Positions 2,998 through 16,204 of a stretch of 64,000 nucleotides of DNA are shown here, piece by piece. The position numbers and the translations under genes are program-made. Numbering within the stretch: position 1 is the stretch's first letter; each line of letters opens with the position of its first letter. The notes beneath the pieces were generated by a model. The model saw only the letters and a list, made by a program, of their open reading frames with translations. It was not told the DNA's origin and did not search any database. Origin of the DNA: Podarcis pityusensis (lineage: Eukaryota); assembly GCA_964106645.2 (NCBI GenBank), contig OZ067039.1; one strand, given 5' to 3'.

Positions 2998-3759
2998 TGT
3001 CAGAGTTGCTTCCAGATCCTAGCTCACAGAGGATCACGCTAGCCAGCGATCATTAAATAAAAGTCTTTATTGAGTTACAGTTTCCATTCTCAAGCTGCTG
3101 CGTGCAACCCTACGTCTAATGGTTAGATCGGCGAAGCTCCATCTGAGTCTCCGCCCCTTGTACACCAACTTAATATCCTAGCCTTGCTCCACCTTTTCCG
3201 CCTGACTGTTCTTCTCTGGGTCCCTCTGCCCCCCGGGGTCTCTTCCTTCCGGGATTCCTCTGACGCTGACGCTGACCCCCCTGACTCTTCTCCCTCCTTT
3301 CGGCGGGCTTTAGGACCTGGCTCCCTTTCCGGGCTGCCTACTGCGCCACCTTCCTGTGCATTTGAACTTGGCGCGCGCGCCCAACCTTCCACTTTCCGTC
3401 TGACCGTTTCTTCGCTCCCCGATGGAGGTGTGGCCACTCCTGACTCGTGCCCTCCCCCCTGTTGTGAGCTGCCAGCGCTTGATCCCTGGCGCCCTTCCTC
3501 TTCCCTGCTCTCTGGCGGTGACGCTGGTCCCGATTTCCAACTGCTCCCCTCTGAGTCCCCTCTGGCTCTATCTTCCTGGGGTGTCCCCCTAGGCTCCCCC
3601 CTTGCCCTGGCCACTGGTGCTCCTTTCTGTGAATCTTCTGATTCACTGGAAAGACTCGGAGATCTCGGGTCGTCGTCATCACTCATCTTTTCTTCTGCCT
3701 CCTCCCCCTCGCTCTCTGTTTCCTCCCTTGCCCTTGCCTCTGCTCCTGAACCCCTGACA
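2998..3759 (-). repeat. 3' LTR (762 bp)
   Basis: Direct repeat of 8810-9565. Preceded on the - strand by the polypurine tract. AATAAA on the - strand at 3066-3071. Confidence 0.95.
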
Positions 3760-6700
3760 TCCATCCCCCCCTCGAAGCCCCCTCTTCCCCCCTCCCCTCC
3801 TTCCGGTGCGGGATCTGGGTGCTGCCGTGTCAGGGGGACGAATGTCGGATACAGTTCGCTTCCCGTGGCGGGCCGCCATCTGAAGTCTTCCGGTTCTTCC
3901 TCCCTGCTCTCGTTGACGACGGTCACCTCCGCTTCCATCTCTGTGCCGCCGTGCTCGAAACCCGGGTCGTCCCCGAAAACGTCCATGTCCGTCTCTCCCT
4001 CGTTGCCTTCTGGAGACGTTGCTCGTCCTGGACCCTCCAGCCACCTTCTGCGGAACTGCTCCTCTGGTCGATCATCCCACCAATACGAGGGTTCTGAAGC
4101 AGATCCCGAGGGTGACCCCTCCGGGGAACGGACGTCTCGTGTCGGTTCCTCGTCCGAGTCGAACCCCCGGAACGTGCTGGCTGAAAGCGTGGGCGTGAAA
4201 AGCCAGTCGTCGAAAAAGTCTGCTGGCATTGGCCTATGTGGGAAGAGGGCATGAAACTCTTCTTTGAGCAGAGGTTCGTCTAAAGCGTAGCCCGGCACCC
4301 AGCTGTTGGCACTGGCCGGGGTGCCCTCCTTGGCGAGAAGGTATTCTACCCCCTCTTCCCCCCATCTGGAGTCCAAAATCTCCGTGACTTCGTTGATGCG
4401 CTCCTCCTGTGCCACTCCCCCTTGCCCGGTTCTCTCTCGGAGCGGACCCGGTGCCGTTCCTGGTTCCTGAAACCTGTGAGGTGCCTTGTAGGGAGTGAGC
4501 ACCGATCTGTGGAACACCGGATGCATTCTGGAACCCTCCGGAAGAGCCAGCCTGAAAGCCACCGGGTTGACCTGTTCTTCGACTTGGTAGGGCCCCAGTT
4601 GTTTATGCCCTAGTTTCTTCTTCGCCAACGACCTGGCCGGCACTGCGTGGGCTGCTAACCAGACCCAGTCTCCCACATGGATCTCTTCGCCAACCCTTCT
4701 GTGTTTGTCCGCTTGTACCTTGTATGCGTGTTTAGCCAGCTCCAGGTGCCGCCGCAGCTGATCGTGGACTTCCTGCAACTCCGACGCGAATGCATCTGCT
4801 GTCTGCGGCTCCCCCTCCCCCATTCTTTCCAGTCCCGGGAAGGTTCTGGGGTGCCTCCCGTTGTTGGCGAAGAACGGCGTGACCCCCGTGGACACGTGCT
4901 TCGTGTTGTTGTAGGCGAACTCGGCGAGAGGCAGGTAATCCACCCACGTCGCAGGCTGTTGATTCGCATAACATCTCAGGTACTGCTGCATGATGGCATT
5001 GACCCGCTCCGCTTGCCCGTTGGTCTGCGGGTGTCTAGCCGACGCCAGGTTGATCTTGACGTTCAGGAAGCCCATCAGCCTCTGCCAGAAGTTCGAGATG
5101 AACTGTCGCCTTCGGTCGGACAGAATAGACCGCGGCAGACCGTGAACCTTGAACACGTGGTCTATGAACAGTTTGGCGGTTTGTTCCGCCGTGGCCACCT
5201 TCGCACACGGAATGAAATGTGCCATCTTGGAGAACAAGTCCACCACCACCAGCACAGCCGTCTTGCCCCTCGAGCTGGGCAGATCCGTGACAAAGTCCAG
5301 GGCCACTCTCTCCCATGGTTCGAACGGAGTTTGCAGCGGTTCCAGCAGTCCGGCCGGCGGTCTGTGCACTGGTTTGGCCCTCTGGCAGGTGTCACACCTC
5401 GCCACGTAGTCCGCGACTTCCCCTCTCATTCCAGGCCACCAGAAGTCTCTGGCTACTAATTCCACCGTCTTCTTCTTTCCAAAGTGCCCGGCAGTGGGCG
5501 CGTCGTGCAGCTGCTGCAGTACCTTGGCGCGAAGTTCGTCTCCCGGCACGTAGATGGCCCCTTTACGGATGAGCAAACCATCTCGCAGCTGGAACTCGTC
5601 GGTCGCTGCCGTGCCCCTGTGCACCTCTGCCATCTTTGCTTGCGCGAAGGAGTCATCCTGCAACGCTCGTCGCACCGCATCCAGGTCAACTGTTGCCGCC
5701 GCGCACGCCCACACTGTCGGTGCGAAGATGTGCATGGCGGCCGCTGGCGTTGCCTCCTCCAGATACTGTGGCTTACGGGAGAGAGCATCCGCCATGATGT
5801 TGGTGTCCCCCGGGACATACTCTATTCGGAAGTCGAAATTCGCAAAGAACTCAGCCCAACGTATCTGCCTCTGGTTCAGGAACTGTGCCGTGCGCCAGTG
5901 CTCTAGATTCTTGTGGTCCGTGCAGACCTGCACCGTGTGCTTGGCGCCGATCAGGAAGTGCCTCCACGCTTTGAACGCTGCATGAATGGCCAGCAACTCC
6001 CTGTCCCAGATGGTGTAGTTCTGTTCGGACTTGCTGAGCTTCCTTGAGTAAAACGCTCCCGGCCTCCAAACCCCCTGCGGGTCTTTCTGCAGCAGGACTG
6101 CTCCCACGGCTCTGTCCGAAGCGTCTGTCTCCACCCTCATCGGCCTGCTGGGGTTGACATGAAGCAGCTGCTCTTCCGACGCGAAGAGACGCTTGAGTGC
6201 CTGAAAGGACTGCTCCGCCTGCTCTGTCCAGATGAACTTCTTTTTCTTGGAGCTGAGCGTGTCCGTGATGGCCGCTGTCTGCATCGCAAAGCCTTTGATA
6301 AACTTGCGATAGAAGTTCGCGAAGCCGACAAACCGTTGGACCTCCTTCCGGTTGCGTGGGCTTTTCCAATCCAACACTGCTCGGACCTTGGCGCTGTCCA
6401 TGGCGAGCCCTTTATCAGACAACTTGTAGCCCAGGAAATCCACCTCCGTCACGTCGAATTGGCACTTCTCCAGCTTGGCGTAAAGCCTATGTTGCTGTAG
6501 CCTGCTCAGCACTTCCTTGACGTGTCTGTCATGCTCCTGCTGCGATTCCGAAAAGATCAGGATGTCATCCAAGAAACAGACGCACGTCTTGTAGAGGAGC
6601 CCCGCCAACACGTGATGCATGAAAGCTTGAAAAACGTGGGAGCCATTTTGCAATCCAAAAGGCATAACTCTATATTCGTAGGTGCCCAGGGGCGTGAACA

Positions 6701-7700
6701 TGGCTGTCTTCCACTCATCTCCTTCCCGCATGCGAATGAGGTTGTATGCCCCTCGCAGGTCCAACTTGGTGAACACTCTGCCCTTCCGTACCTTTGCGAG
6801 GAGGTCGTCGATTCGGGGCATGGGGAAGTCCGATGGCTTGGTCACACTGTTCAAGATGCGATAGTCCACTACAAGTCTTTTTTGGGGCGTGTCCCGCTTC
6901 TTAACAAAGAATACCGGACTGCCCCCCACTGCCTTGGACTCTCGGATGAAACCGCGCTCCAAATTATGATCTATGAACTCTTTGAGTTCCTGCAGTTCGT
7001 CCTCAGACATGGAATACAGCTTCCCTTTGGGCAGCGCCGCCCCCGGCAGCAGGTCAATTTTGCAGTCATATGGTCTGTGGGGGGGTAGCCTGTCTGCCTC
7101 CTTCTCGCAGAAAACCTCCAAAAATTCTGCGTACTTGTGGGGAACCGCTTGCAGCGTGCCTAGCTGCCGCTGTGACTCCTCTTCCTCTCCTTCCTGCCTG
7201 GGCACGATGCAGTGTTCAGCGCAAAAGGAAGAGCCGAAGGTCAGCTGCCTCTGGTACCAAGCCAGCGTCGGGCTGTGCTTGTCCAGCCAACTCATGCCCA
7301 ATACAATGGGCGTGTCCGATAGTTGAGTGACATTGAAGCTGATGATTTCCCTGTGATTCCCAAGTCGCATCACCATTGGTGGCGTCTGCTTCACCACTTG
7401 CCCCCCTAGCAGCTCCCTGCCATCCACCGTGACAACCTGCAGGGGCAGCGTGGCAGGCAGCAACTGTATAGCGTGCCGGTCGACAAAGTCCTGCCCTATA
7501 AAGTCCGCATTGCTTCCGGAGTCAATGGTGATTGGCACGTCCATGGTGATTCCATTGGGCAGCTGGAGCGACGCGGTGAGCCTCACTACTGGTTTGGGCG
7601 GGAGGGGGTCCATGGGCTGTAAAATCTCTGGGGACTGCTTCACTGACACGTCTGGCTGGGCCCCAGTGCCTCTTTCTCCAGCCAGACTCCGTCGTTTCCC
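3123..7700 (-). CDS. pol: Pol polyprotein (protease, RT, RNase H, integrase, GPY/F, degenerate chromodomain, long acidic C-terminal tail), expressed as a Gag-Pol -1 frameshift fusion
   Basis: Motifs: IDSGS (protease); LDLRGAY, MPFGL and FLDD (RT); TDAS (RNase H); H-H-C-C (LHDAPTAGH...CDTC) and D,D,E core (integrase); GPY...HPVFH; EILDSR...VEYL...NSW. The frame is open from the slip site at 7694-7700 to TAA at 3123-3125. Confidence 0.95.
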   Translation of the reverse strand, partial: GKRRSLAGERGTGAQPDVSVKQSPEILQPMDPLPPKPVVRLTASLQLPNGITMDVPITIDSGSNADFIGQDFVDRHAIQLLPATLPLQVVTVDGRELLGGQVVKQTPPMVMRLGNHREIISFNVTQLSDTPIVLGMSWLDKHSPTLAWYQRQLTFGSSFCAEHCIVPRQEGEEEESQRQLGTLQAVPHKYAEFLEVFCEKEADRLPPHRPYDCKIDLLPGAALPKGKLYSMSEDELQELKEFIDHNLERGFIRESKAVGGSPVFFVKKRDTPQKRLVVDYRILNSVTKPSDFPMPRIDDLLAKVRKGRVFTKLDLRGAYNLIRMREGDEWKTAMFTPLGTYEYRVMPFGLQNGSHVFQAFMHHVLAGLLYKTCVCFLDDILIFSESQQEHDRHVKEVLSRLQQHRLYAKLEKCQFDVTEVDFLGYKLSDKGLAMDSAKVRAVLDWKSPRNRKEVQRFVGFANFYRKFIKGFAMQTAAITDTLSSKKKKFIWTEQAEQSFQALKRLFASEEQLLHVNPSRPMRVETDASDRAVGAVLLQKDPQGVWRPGAFYSRKLSKSEQNYTIWDRELLAIHAAFKAWRHFLIGAKHTVQVCTDHKNLEHWRTAQFLNQRQIRWAEFFANFDFRIEYVPGDTNIMADALSRKPQYLEEATPAAAMHIFAPTVWACAAATVDLDAVRRALQDDSFAQAKMAEVHRGTAATDEFQLRDGLLIRKGAIYVPGDELRAKVLQQLHDAPTAGHFGKKKTVELVARDFWWPGMRGEVADYVARCDTCQRAKPVHRPPAGLLEPLQTPFEPWERVALDFVTDLPSSRGKTAVLVVVDLFSKMAHFIPCAKVATAEQTAKLFIDHVFKVHGLPRSILSDRRRQFISNFWQRLMGFLNVKINLASARHPQTNGQAERVNAIMQQYLRCYANQQPATWVDYLPLAEFAYNNTKHVSTGVTPFFANNGRHPRTFPGLERMGEGEPQTADAFASELQEVHDQLRRHLELAKHAYKVQADKHRRVGEEIHVGDWVWLAAHAVPARSLAKKKLGHKQLGPYQVEEQVNPVAFRLALPEGSRMHPVFHRSVLTPYKAPHRFQEPGTAPGPLRERTGQGGVAQEERINEVTEILDSRWGEEGVEYLLAKEGTPASANSWVPGYALDEPLLKEEFHALFPHRPMPADFFDDWLFTPTLSASTFRGFDSDEEPTRDVRSPEGSPSGSASEPSYWWDDRPEEQFRRRWLEGPGRATSPEGNEGETDMDVFGDDPGFEHGGTEMEAEVTVVNESREEEPEDFRWRPATGSELYPTFVPLTRQHPDPAPEGGEGGRGGFEGGMDVRGSGAEARAREETESEGEEAEEKMSDDDDPRSPSLSSESEDSQKGAPVARARGEPRGTPQEDRARGDSEGSSWKSGPASPPESREEEGRQGSSAGSSQQGGGHESGVATPPSGSEETVRRKVEGWARAPSSNAQEGGAVGSPEREPGPKARRKEGEESGGSASASEESRKEETPGGRGTQRRTVRRKRWSKARILSWCTRGGDSDGASPI
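3760..3773 (-). promoter_or_regulatory. Polypurine tract (GAGGGGGGGATGGA) abutting the 3' LTR
   Basis: Purine-rich run immediately 5' of the TGTCAG LTR start on the - strand. Confidence 0.8.
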
Positions 7701-8716
7701 TGCTGTGGTTGTCCTTGCTGCGTTGCTGCAGTTACCATTGCTGAGGCTGCAGTGTGCTTGTGGAGCCTCTGGGGACACTCTTTCGCCATATGCTGTGGAT
7801 CATCGCAGATGTAACACTTCCTGTTCCCTCTAGGAGGCTTCGCTTTCACTGCTGCCGGTGCTAGGGCTCTGGCTGCTGACTGAGCCCTTGCACCTCCAAC
7901 CTCCATAGGTTCCGCTCCTCCTCCTGGCGGAGGCGTGGATTGCGCACGCGCTGCTTCTCTGGGAAGGAAGGAGGAGCCCCTGGCTGGTTCGCGCCCTCCA
8001 CGCCCTTCGCCACTGCTCCACGGACGTTCTTCCAGCCGCACCCCCACCGCCAGCGCCCTCTGAACGATCTCCTGCGTGGTCCGGGGTCTCTCCCCCCTCG
8101 CAATTTCATCTTTAACCGAGCCGTGCAATCCCTCCCAAAACAGGTCTCTTACAGGAGCCGAATCTCTGTCCCATTCCAGAGCACTGACCAAAGCGAAAAA
8201 GCGGGCATGGTACTGCCTTACGCTGGCCCTCCCTTGCTTCAGTCCATGTATCTGCTGCCGAGCAAGATCCACGTCAATGCTTGATAAAAAGCACCCATCC
8301 ATCGCTTTAATAAAGGCATCCGCATTTTGGAGCGCCGGATCCTTATCTCTCCACAAATTGCGCAGCCATGCTTTAGCATCTCCATGCAAATGGGACATGA
8401 TGAATCCCACCTTCTCTTGCTCATCTCTAAAGTCTTTGTTCAGCAGTTGCAGTGCACACATTACATCTGCTCTAAAGTTGGGGTACTGTTGCAAATTCCC
8501 ATCGAAGTGAGAGACCAGACCGCCTGTTCGTCTCCCCAACCCAATCCCCTCCGGTTTGGGTGTCAGTTGCCCTTGCTTCGTAAGCACTTCCAACCTGACC
8601 TGGAGATCCCTGTAGGCGGCAGCTGCGTCCTCCTCTCTCTTCCTGGATGCAAGAGCCTCGGCATTCAGTCGCGACACTGCTTCTCTGAGTTCCGCTATCT
8701 GCTGTTCGGCCGTCAT
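7640..8716 (-). CDS. gag: Gag (358 aa from the first ATG) with CCHC zinc knuckle
   Basis: N-terminal coiled-coil-like stretch, capsid-like LKQG...VRQY...F...GL region, EPMEV motif, and CYICDDPQHMAKEC (CX2CX4HX4C). Confidence 0.93.
   Translation of the reverse strand: MTAEQQIAELREAVSRLNAEALASRKREEDAAAAYRDLQVRLEVLTKQGQLTPKPEGIGLGRRTGGLVSHFDGNLQQYPNFRADVMCALQLLNKDFRDEQEKVGFIMSHLHGDAKAWLRNLWRDKDPALQNADAFIKAMDGCFLSSIDVDLARQQIHGLKQGRASVRQYHARFFALVSALEWDRDSAPVRDLFWEGLHGSVKDEIARGERPRTTQEIVQRALAVGVRLEERPWSSGEGRGGREPARGSSFLPREAARAQSTPPPGGGAEPMEVGGARAQSAARALAPAAVKAKPPRGNRKCYICDDPQHMAKECPQRLHKHTAASAMVTAATQQGQPQQGNDGVWLEKEALGPSQTCQ
7641..7700 (-). promoter_or_regulatory. -1 ribosomal frameshift signal: G GGA AAC, 6-nt spacer, 10-bp stem / possible pseudoknot
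   Basis: The heptamer is in the correct gag phase (CAG GGA AAC). GTCTGGCTGG pairs perfectly with CCAGCCAGAC. The -1 frame is the pol ORF. Confidence 0.85.
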
Positions 8717-8797
8717 GTTGTCTGCCGTTCGTGAGCTCGCTAGTAGGCACCCGCTTTCTCTCCTCTCCGCGAGGCTGTAGATGCCCACAATTTATGG

Positions 8798-8807
8798 GAT
8801 GGAGCTT
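8798..8807 (-). promoter_or_regulatory. Putative self-priming primer-binding site (AAGCTCCATC)
   Basis: Lies 2 nt downstream of the 5' LTR and lacks the TGG of a tRNA PBS. Exactly complementary to GATGGAGCTT at 8955-8946, which lies about 32 nt downstream of a TATTAA box. Confidence 0.75.
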
Positions 8808-8809
8808 AC

Positions 8810-9565
8810 TGTCAGAGTTGCTTCCAGATCCTAGCTCACAGAGGATCACGCTAGCCAGCGATCATTAAATAAAAGTCTTTATTGAGTTACAGTTTCCATT
8901 CTCAAGCTGCTGCGTGCAACCCTACGTCTAATGGTTAGATCGGCGAAGCTCCATCTGAGTCTCCGCCCCTTGTACACCAACTTAATATCCTAGCCTTGCT
9001 CCACCTTTTCCGCCTGACTGTTCTTCTCTGGGTCCCTCTGCCCCCCGGGGTCTCTTCCTTCCGGGATTCCTCTGACGCTGACCCCCCTGACTCTTCTCCC
9101 TCCTTTCGGCGGGCTTTAGGACCTGGCTCCCTTTCCGGGCTGCCTACTGCGCCACCTTCCTGTGCATTTGAACTTGGCGCGCGCGCCCAACCTTCCACTT
9201 TCCGTCTGACCGTTTCTTCGCTCCCCGATGGAGGTGTGGCCACTCCTGACTCGTGCCCTCCCCCCTGTTGTGAGCTGCCAGCGCTTGATCCCTGGCGCCC
9301 TTCCTCTTCCCTGCTCTCTGGCGGTCACGCTGGTCCCGATTTCCAACTGCTCCCCTCTGAGTCCCCTCTGGCTCTATCTTCCTGGGGTGTCCCCCTAGGC
9401 TCCCCCCTTGCCCTGGCCACTGGTGCTCCTTTCTGTGAATCTTCTGATTCACTGGAAAGACTCGGAGATCTCGGGTCGTCGTCATCACTCATCTTTTCTT
9501 CTGCCTCCTCCCCCTCGCTTTCTGTTTCCTCCCTTGCCCTTGCCTCTGCTCCTGAACCCCTGACA
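8810..9565 (-). repeat. 5' LTR (756 bp)
   Basis: Direct repeat of 2998-3759. Differences seen: a 6-bp indel, G3520/C9326 and C3714/T9520. Confidence 0.95.
8982..8987 (-). promoter_or_regulatory. TATA-like box (TATTAA) of the 5' LTR promoter
   Basis: AT-rich hexamer in an otherwise GC-rich U3, about 32 nt upstream of the predicted self-priming 5' end. Confidence 0.6.
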
Positions 9566-10973
9566 GATGTGAACATAAACTCATTGCTGTAGCTCTGAAC
9601 CATGGTTTGCTGTTAGATATAACCCAGCCCAGAGTTTTCTTTGCAGCTGAATTTTTCAGAGAACTGAAAGAAATCTGTGTTGGACTGCATTTTAAAATGA
9701 GGGATGTAGCACCTTCCCTTAGTAAGACCCTACAGTCCTGGAAACATATATTGGTTACTCTTAACATTAAGAGCAAGGTAACTAAGAAGCATTGTGTGAA
9801 CAAACTATTTGGCTGACTGCTACAGGAAATGTAAATATAAATTAGACAGTAGAGCCAAATAATTTTTAACCGCATTTCTCTATTTCTAGATCCATATCTA
9901 TAACCTAGACGCAGTCCTTGGATAACAGTTTGACTTTCTTTGCAAAAAGAACTGTAGATTTGTGCAGTGAACTTTCTAGCGTGGCAAATGTAGTACTTGT
10001 TTGAATGTAATTCCAGTTTGTTTTGTTGGAACAAAATGTTTTGATTACTTTGTTTAGAAGGGCATTTTATTCCTGTGATCTAATTTAGCCTCCTGTGGAG
10101 ATTATGGGTAAACAATTTTTTTTTTTAAAAAAGTGTAACTTTGACTTAGGGCAAGCAGTTTGGGTAGGTAGCTAAAGTCAGTGTTTACTGGTCATGACCT
10201 GATTCATCATGAGTAAATATACCCCCCTCAATAAAAGACGAGTGTTTTTTATTTGCAATATTTCACACATGTGCTTTTTATGGTGAGTAATTTATTGAAA
10301 CTTGGAGCTGAAGTCTAATGCTGCCTCAAATTTTATAGCTCCTTGTACTTTGAAAAATCACTTTAATCTTAAAAGCTGTCCCCCCCTTCAATATGTGTTT
10401 GATCATTGTTACTAAAAAATCTTTGATTAAAACCTTATTTGTGAAGCATTTCTAACAACATTTTACATTATGCTGTTTGTGTTCAAGGCTGCTTTTTATT
10501 ATTAACGATGTAGAATCCGTAGCACCCTTTTCTTGAGGATGTATTAGAGAAATCATGAATGCTTCATAAATACATCAAACTTTTCCAACAGAACAGCCCA
10601 TCTAGTCTCTTGAACTTTTAAAAATGTCCAACTTAACCTTTTTAGGAAGGCGAGCAGAGGGAGGAATGAGAGGTAGTAGAGGACTTCTCTAGGGTCCTTA
10701 ACAGCTATCCTCTGTCTTGATTTTAATTTTATTGATTTTTTAGTCAGAGCTTTCCCTGGAAATGCTGTTTCCTTTATTCACTAGGAGAGATTCCCATTTC
10801 AGAGTCAGAATGCCTTCCTTTGGTATGAATTGGGCTGCCCAAAGGCACTGCTATTGATAATGAATAATATTTATAGTTTCATGCTTTCAACTACCCTGAT
10901 CAGTAGCAAGTTTCAGTGGCAATCTTTATAGGAACAGCAGCCTTGAACAAAGTGAATATTGAGGACTTACGTA

Positions 10974-12856: not shown

Positions 12857-14402
12857 TAGCTAGCCAGCCAACCATAGTCCCCCACAGTGCCTTGGATTGA
12901 ATGACACGATGTCACAGGTAATGGAACATTGCTTAATGGCCTATGTTATAAACCAGCCACTCCCACTTTCTGGCTAGCAGGAGTGAGCCACCAGGGATTA
13001 GGTAGGGTTCTTCACCAAAAAATATCCCCATGACCACTTTAGGATCGCTTGACCAAGCAATAAACTTCCAACATGAAATGGAGCAAAATCTTAGCTAATA
13101 TGCACCCATCTCGGCGGAATAAAATCTGAATGGGAAGTCTAATTGATTAGCATTAAGAAGTGGTTCTTATAGCTAGCACTTTTTTTTGGTAGCAGTACTG
13201 TTTATGGATGAAATATAACAAGATGTTATGTACATTTCTAGCATGTTTTAATAATTTGTTTAACAATTAGGAGAAAATAGAATGTTTAAAAATTTAAACA
13301 TTAATGAAATATTAAACAGGATTTTTGTTTTTGTATTCATCCATTATTCAACCAAATAGGAAGTTTGCTTCCTAGGCTTTCTTCTGAAATGAAAAGCCTG
13401 CTATATAGTTTATCAGATATGGCAGTTCTAAACTCTGTTCATCATTTATGATCACAGCAAGCTTGGGAAGGGAAGAGAACCCCTCTTTCTGTTTAGCTCC
13501 AAGATTGAGCGTGCCTGAGAACTCCCTGCATGGTTCATAAGGTGGTCAGGCATTTTGGTAGCTGCACAAAAAAACATTGGCCAAATCCTGTCCTTACCTG
13601 TCTGACATGAAGTGCAGAGTGGGTGACAGCCTCATGGGTCAAATAGAGAAGTCTGCTGTGCCAAGAGCGGTTCTCTACCCTGATCTAGAGATACAAAAAA
13701 AACCACCTGAGGAGCTGAAGGTATCTTGCCTTGCCTCAGGGAACAGTATAACCCTGTAAGATGTTCAAAGCAGTCTTGAACACAAAGTTCAAACCCCCAT
13801 CACAGGCAAGAATGTCACTGTGAGAAATAGCCTGGCAGAAAGTGCAAAAGTAGTAACAGCTACTAAAGCACTGGTGTCAATTGGCAATGTGGTTATTCTT
13901 GAATTGGCAGCTGGGATATTGAAAGGAAAATTCAGGAGCCAGCTGATGAAATTTGATGTTCATTATTATGAAATCCTATTTTTAAACAGGGGAACTTCTG
14001 CGACATTTCTCTTCCATGCAAATGATAAATGTTGATTCAAAAAGAAGCAAAGCATTGGGGTGTTGTCGCAGCTAAGTATAATTTTCCATGGGCATTACAA
14101 CTTGCCACGTGGACATGATGCTGGCCTGCAACTTGTGAATGCATAGTAAAATGTCACAGGCACAAGGTCTTGCTTTGGAGGCATTTATTTATGAAATCAT
14201 TCATCAATGAATTTTCACACGTCACAAATTGGTAACAGGTCATTTGCCAGAAAACCTTTTTTCCCCACTGTTTCCAATAAGTATTACCATAAGTTGGACA
14301 ACTGCCCATGAAACATTAGCTGTTTATGTATATTGGTTTATGTATATTGCCACAGATGGGGAGAAAAGTGATACACACATTTAAAGAAAACACTTATCTA
14401 AG

Positions 14403-14780
14403 GTAAAGGTAAAGGGACCCCTGACAGTTAAGCCCAGTCGCGACTCTGGGGTTGCAGCGCTCATCTCGCTTTACAGGCTGAGGGAGCCGACATTTGTCCG
14501 CAGACAGTTTTTCCGGGTCATGTGGCCAGCATGACTAAGCCGCTTCTGGTACAATGGAACACTGAAATCAGAGCATCGCACGGAAACGCCGTTTACCTTC
14601 CCGCTGGAGCGGTACCTATTAATCTACTTGCACTTTTGGTGTGCTTTCAAACTGCTAGGTTGGCAGGAGCTGGGACTGAGCAACGGGAGCTCTCCCCATC
14701 ACGGGGATTCGAACCGCCAACCTTTTGATCAGCAAGCTCAAGGCTCAGTGGTTTAGACCACAGCGCCACCCGCATCCCTA
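14403..14780 (-). mobile_element. Sauria SINE, full length
   Basis: Reverse complement of the 2159 copy. 11-bp TSD acttatctaag at 14392-14402 and 14781-14791. Confidence 0.88.
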
Positions 14781-15436
14781 ACTTATCTAAGTTACACATA
14801 AATTATTGAGGTTGCTAAACGGTTTCATCATCATCATCATCATCATTATTATCATCCTATACCTGGAGGTCTCAGGACGGTTCACAGAATAAAATATAAA
14901 ACCACAAAGTACATCATCAAAATAAAAACAACAACCCAATAACCCCCACTCCCCCCAAAAACCCACATTTTAAAAGGGCACAGGATCCTCCTCACAACAT
15001 TTAAAGTAAGACAATTAACAAACCTGGACAAGAGCCACCCATTGGAAAGACCATGATCTCAGAAATGTCTGCAGCAATATTTATTGGCAACCAAATTGGC
15101 TGGGTGCCTTTCTGATACAAAGACAAAAATAGCTTTGAAAAAGGGGAGGGGGGTAGCTTTGGTTGTTGAGTAGATGTAACATATTCCTCTTCCGCAAGGG
15201 GAAGGCCTGTATCTAATGTTGCAAATGAGTCCTCTTTGCTGTGTTTCATCTTCTTTCTTCTTGGCGCTGTTTCCACCGCTGATGAGCTTCCACCAGGTGG
15301 TTGTTTGTCCATGCCAGAAAGCCACCATGACTTTCTGGATCAGCCTCTTGGTCAGAGCCTGTGTATCTGCCAAGGTCTGGAAGGATGCTTGGGTCACAGC
15401 TTTCAGAAACGAAATAACAAGAAAGCACTTAAACTA

Positions 15437-16204
15437 ATATTCACATGTGGTGGGAATGCACAGCCATTAAGGAATTTTTCAATCTATAATGAATTAGAAA
15501 AGTTATTTAAGTTCTCATTTAAGAAAAAACCTGAAACCTTCCTCCTAGGCATAATGTCATCAGAAATAAAAAAAGATGTTAGACCACTTTTTATGTATAT
15601 GACAGTAGCAGCCAGGATCTTAATTGCAAGTAACTGGAAAAGTGATAAAACACCTACTATAAACGAGTGGCAGGTCCAAATGATAGAATATCTGCAGTTG
15701 GCTATGATGACAGGGAGAGTCATAGGATATCTAAAACAGAAAGTACAGAAAGAATGGAAAATCTTTAAAGAATACCTGGAAAACTATTTTAATAATAAAC
15801 ATCTCCTGGAAGAACTAGAATGATTCTTGTAAAATAAGAAACATAATGCTTTTGGTATCTGATAAAAATAAAGAAAGTAATACAGTAATTTGGAACTGTG
15901 TGTGAAAGAACAATAGAAATAATAATACAATGAGTCTAATCGGAAGTTAAATGTGTTTATTCTTTTTTTCAATTCTTTTCTTTATTAATTTCCTTTTTTT
16001 TTTCTTCTCCCCCTTTCTTTTGGTCTCCTTCTTTCTGATCTGCTAAGAAAGAGATAAAGTTAAACATGAAAAGTTGACTAACACAAAGTGATGTTTTGTA
16101 GTTTGTTAACTATTGTTAAAGATGGTCAACTGTAATGAATTGATGTTTTAGTTATTGTTGATTTATTGTTATTGTTGAATCTTAAATAAAAGTTATATTT
16201 AAAA
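15437..16204 (+). mobile_element. 5'-truncated L1-clade LINE (ORF2 C-terminus plus 3' UTR)
   Basis: HMWWEC remnant, then PETFLLGI...AARILIA.NWK...EW (L1 ORF2 tail), stop at 15823, AATAAA and A tail. 15-bp TSD aaagcacttaaacta at 15422-15436 and 16205-16219. Confidence 0.85.

Follow-up and report, generated by a model that had tools for sequence, protein, structure and literature searches.

Variation among genomic copies of a lizard Tf1/sushi-type retrotransposon points to reverse transcription primed by the capped end of its own RNA

The retrotransposon and its relatives

The DNA analysed here is a stretch of 64,000 nucleotides from Podarcis pityusensis (assembly GCA_964106645.2, contig OZ067039.1), referred to below as the window. 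At 9565-2998 it carries a young Ty3/gypsy LTR retrotransposon, identified by its LTR pair and by a 5-nt target-site duplication whose identical 5-mers lie outside both LTRs (9566..9570 upstream, 2993-2997 downstream); this element and its features are on the minus strand. The 5' LTR (8810..9565, 756 nt) has the form TG...CA and ends in ...TGACA at 8810. Comparison by blastn with the 3' LTR (2998..3759, 762 nt) gives 754 identical positions out of 762, the pair differing by two substitutions and one 6-nt indel; the common indel of U3 also measures 6 nt. The 5' LTR contains the TATA-like box TATTAA (8982..8987), a putative promoter element that is found at a similar distance in related families, and an AATAAA polyadenylation signal (8878..8883) that is conserved in the alignment of copies.

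Further downstream, gag (7640..8716) encodes a Ty3 capsid and a zinc knuckle (Pfam PF03732, PF19259, PF16297 and PF00098), while pol (3123..7799), which lies in the -1 frame relative to gag, encodes protease, RT, RNase H, integrase, SH3, a putative chromodomain and an acidic tail, as judged by Pfam. The gag-pol overlap includes a GGGAAAC slippery site (7694..7700) at which frameshifting would occur, and a purine run abutting the 3' LTR constitutes the polypurine tract (3760..3775). The PR-RT-RH-IN domain order between the LTRs is that of Ty3/gypsy elements, SH3_Tf2-1 is matched too, and the top match among solved structures is Ty3 Gag-Pol (E 1e-135). The Chromo domain match behind the integrase is weak (E 0.0011; 19.3 bits, below the cut-off of 25.1), and PF00385 is present in named homologs of the sister family. 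The first-pass annotation of this DNA had described the element as intact. This holds for the open frames, the LTRs, the target duplication and the catalytic residues looked for, including the RNase H catalytic motifs seen on inspection of the sequence, but not for the integrase core, where a non-conservative substitution adjoins the catalytic Asp; hence, activity of the window copy is only putative. Around the element, two inverted copies of a short interspersed repeat, 82-94% alike, flank the region (2159-2535 and 14402-14778), and an open frame of 217 codons lies on the plus strand at 15170-15823, its second half resembling what we take to be a tail fragment of a LINE protein.

The nearest named homolog is a Podarcis muralis protein with 95% identity over RT-RNase H. 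A quick maximum-likelihood tree was built from 40 RT-RNase H rows, named Tf1 or sushi-ichi rows not being among them; the squamate clade containing the element sits inside a vertebrate-plus-fungal group of 29 rows (98% SH-aLRT), with plant, algal and arachnid rows falling apart from that group. The 95% identity supports the earlier description of a squamate element.

Searches with homologous proteins led from the window element's own family, here called family A, to family D (about 76% pol identity), a set of intermediates, family B (about 55%) and family C (about 45%). Four of the 20 intermediate stretches held no recognisable junction and were left out, and one further retrieved stretch (L210) had no LTR pair. 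A fifth family was not found with two Anolis protein queries, both of which returned family C again. Copies of family C differ in layout: gag and pol occupy one 1623-codon frame in some and a separate 1270-codon pol frame exists in others, and their LTRs vary behind the primer by steps of about 42 nt (599, 641 and 683). In the acidic tail behind the integrase, the window element has an FxGF motif flanked by Ser/Asp/Glu (4172-4161), which families A, D and B share with two Anolis proteins (nine named homologs) and family C lacks. The motif resembles those that bind the LEDGF/HRP2 domain (PMC9987994), and judged by its sequence it could be a candidate chromatin tether where the chromodomain is weak; our literature search found no earlier report of FxGF in such retrotransposons.

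The primer-binding site and the leader

The 5' LTR is followed by a 2-nt spacer, GT (8808..8809), and then by the 10-nt primer-binding site (PBS) AAGCTCCATC (8798..8807, read from 8807 to 8798), which in most copies is 11 nt long and reaches 8797. The PBS is the exact complement of 8955-8946 in the LTR, and a search of the whole window for the 10-mer returned it elsewhere only in both LTRs. No TGG, with which a tRNA-type PBS starts, is present behind the 5' LTR. The first-pass annotation was correct on the spacer, the 10-nt complement and the missing TGG. The spacer, which has the same length in all four families, is likely the dinucleotide removed by integrase, as a dinucleotide is removed in retroviral 3' processing. 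By the criterion of PMC6317226, a complement of at least 10 nt starting 0-5 nt after the LTR, the window copy shows 10 nt at offset 2. Such a complement, at any of six offsets and anywhere in the LTR (no demand being set on its position), arose in 179 of 20000 LTRs simulated from a first-order Markov model. Comparison of the PBS with tRNAs, also proposed at the outset, gave no match longer than 6 nt among 51 distinct sequences of 22 anticodon types, an incomplete set.

The LTR stretch 8946..8956 is predicted to be the first 11 nt of the RNA and, by its complementarity to the PBS, the self-primer. TATTAA was correctly placed by the first-pass annotation, which expected transcription to start at about 8955-8956; among the copies described below, 39 of 70 pair over 11 nt from A8956, a base 31 nt downstream of the T that opens TATTAA. 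The context of A8956 is presumably initiator-like, and the predicted RNA 5' end fits both the spacing from the TATA-like box and the C found behind the duplex. RNAs starting at 8955-8957, when folded computationally, pair with the PBS in this helix with probabilities of about 0.9-1.0. In the window copy, the PBS end also complements 8 nt of the polypurine tract, a match that was set aside since it needs the minority allele at 8797.

It should also be noted that the pol frame enters the 3' LTR for 637 nt (3759-3123), crossing the TATA-like box and the primer sequence, with its stop codon about 20 nt behind the latter. The pol frames of families D and B likewise read into the LTR and stop at a similar place, and the primer position that varies, 8953/3141, falls on the third base of a pol codon. 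Promoter, primer and protein tail thus appear to share one LTR sequence; a frame reaching into the LTR occurs in plant CRM chromoviruses as well.

From family A, family D and the intermediates, 22 copies chosen to span variants were aligned. The primer helix is 99.2% paired in this alignment, against 34-47% for slid controls; two-sided changes are seen in three of its 11 pairs, and one position of the helix shows five pair types. Against a shuffle control that ignores relatedness, both the percentage paired and the covariation score stood out (reached in 0 of 500 shuffles), while the number of two-sided pairs did not (133 of 500). Two other helices covary in the same alignment. The first joins 8916..8925, the 5' arm of a 10-bp helix, to the U5 end at 8821-8811; 98.6% of its cells are paired, two pairs carry two-sided changes and one pair occurs in four types. 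The second is a U5 hairpin (8827..8847) of six pairs, with 100% of cells paired and two pairs changed on both sides. RNAalifold returned nearly the same leader structure unaided. The first of these helices corresponds to the Tf1-type duplex that links the bases 5' of the PBS to an LTR stretch behind the primer. Tf1 also needs a third duplex, which completes its "pretzel" 3' of the PBS; a search for it gave a negative result, as 130 of 500 shuffles were as stable in the window copy, and when the 22 nt behind the primer were tested in each copy, 95% of shuffles were beaten by only one copy of 16. For this reason, we do not class the leader as a full pretzel, and the "full" Tf1 geometry ascribed to the element in the first-pass annotation goes beyond what is shown. 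Because the two other helices covary without being copied from a primer, covariation alone shows RNA structure and not priming.

Variation of the junction among copies and families

In each of the related families (D, the intermediates, B and C), the end of the LTR is followed by 2 nt and then by a 10-12-nt complement of the family's own LTR behind a TATA-like word. The PBS letters differ between families; those of B and C are unrelated, each fitting its own LTR at the same offset. Recent recombination sharing the motif is excluded by these differences in letters. Broken duplexes occur in three of 20 copies of family B (on a CpG), three of 10 of family D and one of nine further copies of family C.

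The U5-PBS junction of family A is present in at least 381 genomic copies. We examined 70 copies out of 100 listed among these 381, found with a search pattern that stops before the variable sites. At LTR position 8953 versus PBS position 8800, 54 copies are T:A, nine are C:G and two are A:T, with three discordant and two unreadable, so that 65 of 68 readable copies are Watson-Crick paired. Because C:G belongs to one subfamily background and A:T to a second, two independent changes have taken place, although copy counts overstate independent events because copies are related. Only four of 1136 positions have three alleles each in two or more copies, namely 8953, 8800, 8797 and 8795. At 8797, the counts are 45 T, 22 C and 3 A; T extends the duplex to 11 nt, starting at A8956, and the window copy, with its 10-nt duplex, holds a minority allele. 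The duplex is 11 nt in 39 copies, 10 nt in 24, 13 nt in two and shorter in four, and one copy lacks the anchor; discordant or short duplexes number five of 70 (one without anchor). The U3/R border itself, 8958-8954, is invariant. Paired changes of the PBS and the predicted RNA 5' end, for which the first-pass annotation had suggested looking, were thus seen within the family, across related families and in families with unrelated letters.

Family A junctions also cluster strongly near contig ends (138.85-139.02 Mb of contig C1 and 0.05-1.72 Mb of contig C2), 31 of the 100 listed junctions falling in the first 1.72 Mb of C2. One reading of this subterminal clustering is targeting to, or retention in, these regions.

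The junction ends in a hypervariable stretch (8793..8797) made up of the duplex end, a near-invariant C at 8796 and 0-3 variable bases. Behind an intact duplex, the next base is a C in 62 of 65 copies of family A, 17 of 17 of B, 30 of 30 of C, seven of seven of D and 16 of 16 intermediates, in total 132 of 135; the three exceptions, all in family A, have A. For duplexes of 10-13 nt, this C is not encoded by the upstream LTR base. In lengthened duplexes (13 nt in two copies of A, 12 nt in one of D, 11 nt in one of C), bases upstream of the usual start are paired, and then there is again a C that the LTR does not encode. The tails of 0-3 bases behind the C take 19 different forms among the 70 copies of family A. 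Nine A copies that are identical over the rest of 9500-8450 have four different tails, 25 of their 36 pairs differing, and 20 A copies with one shared-site haplotype have nine. In families B and C, the tails vary little. Family D and the intermediates have A-rich stretches of varying length between the C and the next conserved leader motif, that of D holding a partly repeated unit and an A/T hairpin; these stretches look as if untemplated additions had piled up over many cycles.

Our control was a young family of retrovirus-like elements whose primer site fits tRNA-His, represented by 20 copies. The sequence behind its PBS is invariant (20 of 20), and variation falls inside the PBS instead: 17 copies have one extra base there and the other three match tRNA-His perfectly. 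At the U3/R border of this control, a mirror-image hotspot was not seen, the sole three-allele site lying 62 nt behind TATATA.

Four RNA runs of a related organism were searched for the predicted start. These are libraries without cap selection, with a leader depth below 10 and with reads from diverged copies, most of them 85-95% alike; no pile of read starts was seen at 8955-8956 in them. Read ends near 8979 and 9565, carrying what we take to be the tag, were considered as starts and rejected: both sit at runs of G, which suggests artefacts of template switching. In the reads, the alternative allele at 8953 is frequent (63 of 80, 54 of 81, 48 of 187 and 71 of 204), and the matching PBS allele is found in 15 of 16 reads over 8800 (unphased).

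Self-priming and the record of the RNA end

Taken together, our results make it very probable that this Tf1/sushi-type lizard retrotransposon starts reverse transcription from a primer made of the first 10-13 bases, cap included, of its own RNA, cut off by RNase H as in Tf1. Covariation, tRNA comparison and cross-family geometry all support the Tf1-type self-priming proposed in the first-pass annotation. Most transcripts would begin at A8956 and some either one base downstream or as many as two upstream; the RNA 5' end would fold onto the PBS, and predicted RNase H cleavage after 8946 would free a 3'-OH. Later, plus-strand synthesis would run to the end of the primer, place a C opposite the cap and go on for a few bases without template; primer copy, C and tail would then enter the daughter element at the second strand transfer. 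Such a mechanism would account for the reappearance in the PBS of any change at the RNA start, for the varying duplex length and for the repeated mutation of the bases behind the duplex.

The C probably stems from copying of the cap, and the variable tail from untemplated addition. RTs are known to do both, and extra bases without template have reportedly been seen at the ends of Tf1 cDNA, so the biochemistry of the footprint is probably already known for Tf1. Tailing with dATP by Tf1 RT in manganese is mentioned in 10.1101/2021.04.30.442027. We lean, with less assurance than for self-priming itself, towards the further reading that each integrated copy records the 5' end of its parent RNA: the PBS would be rewritten from the capped primer in every cycle, making start choice, cap (as C) and untemplated additions readable from the genome.

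The strongest competitor, which we hold to be a good deal less probable than this record, accepts self-priming and has the C kept by selection, for example for pairing with the cap guanine, the tail being ordinary strand-transfer error and not a fresh cap copy per cycle. The near fixation of C in all families and the small variation of tails in B and C fit such selection, and template-end errors are known in tRNA-primed elements such as Ty1. Nevertheless, the rare duplexes of three families that gained one or two bases complementary to the upstream LTR, together with a C, in one step are harder to reconcile with selection on the C, as is the invariance behind the PBS of the tRNA-primed control.

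Much less probable is that the pairing is a structural leader helix, serving packaging, dimerisation or translation control, and that a host RNA such as a tRNA fragment acts as the primer. In favour of this, covariation is as good in the other leader helices, the tRNA comparison covered an incomplete set, and half-tRNA priming exists in copia lineages (PMC6317226). A fixed host primer, however, would keep returning the PBS to a single sequence, as the control illustrates with its perfect tRNA-His matches, whereas the PBS letters of the four families differ, three to five alleles occur at one PBS site, each fitting its own LTR, and no tRNA matches beyond 6 nt. Finally, that the PBS-LTR match is due to chance or to linkage within subfamilies is barely credible, for although the C:G pair is linked to other subfamily sites, few simulated LTRs reached 10 nt even with the complement allowed anywhere, offset and position are the same in four families with different letters, and the slid controls collapse.

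The lizard family belongs to the Tf1/sushi group, and with self-priming by its own RNA as the preferred reading, the mechanism is already known in kind; what is added is the copy-level genomic evidence. Butler et al. 2001 reportedly proposed self-priming in vertebrate Tf1/sushi elements. This 2001 proposal is cited in PMC10085805, PMC6317226 and PMC4600332. Self-priming has been demonstrated in Tf1 and is implicated in hosts ranging from fungi to vertebrates (PMC4600332), its steps in Tf2 have been outlined (PMC5341516), and for the Tf1/sushi group it is described as a common feature, along with a three-duplex leader and, in members outside fission yeasts, -1 frameshifting (PMC10085805). According to PMC4600332 and PMC10085805, vertebrate self-priming has so far been inferred from complementarity only, with experiment only in fission yeast. 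The mechanism as such would therefore not surprise a specialist; it is the hundreds of near-identical copies that reveal paired changes and a likely imprint of the capped end, neither of which a single element could supply. If the imprint is real, any genome harbouring a young family would allow self-priming to be checked, the positions at which the RNA starts and is cut could be predicted exactly, and true self-priming could be separated from a mere leader helix. If each copy is indeed a record, it would amount to sequence-only proof of self-priming in an amniote, with a built-in lineage barcode and a test applicable to any candidate self-priming lineage, and the lizard leader would dispense with the third Tf1 duplex. 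Within the open-access literature, we found no prior report of a cap or covariation footprint or of self-priming in a lizard.

With Tf1/Tf2 of Schizosaccharomyces pombe the element shares a PBS of about 11 nt complementary to the start of R in place of a tRNA site, a U5 stem-loop and a second duplex involving the bases immediately 5' of the PBS (PMC10085805), and a Ty3/gypsy pol with an SH3_Tf2-1 domain. It differs from them in the third pretzel duplex, which was not found, and in a pol whose frame continues across U3 and the primer sequence; the lizard gag has a CCHC knuckle and its pol lies in the -1 frame, whereas Tf1 lacks CCHC and uses a single frame. The vertebrate Tf1/sushi elements (sushi-ichi; the GyDB V-clade), with sushi-ichi and Amn compared by description, resemble it in the vertebrate-plus-fungal RT-RNase H cluster, the -1 frameshift, the CCHC gag and the self-complementary PBS; unlike them, the lizard family has a weak chromodomain match. 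PEG10, a domesticated mammalian sushi-type gene, has the same GGGAAAC heptamer at the gag-pol overlap (PMC10570562), but it has lost LTRs, RT, RNase H and integrase, all of which the lizard element keeps, along with hundreds of young copies.
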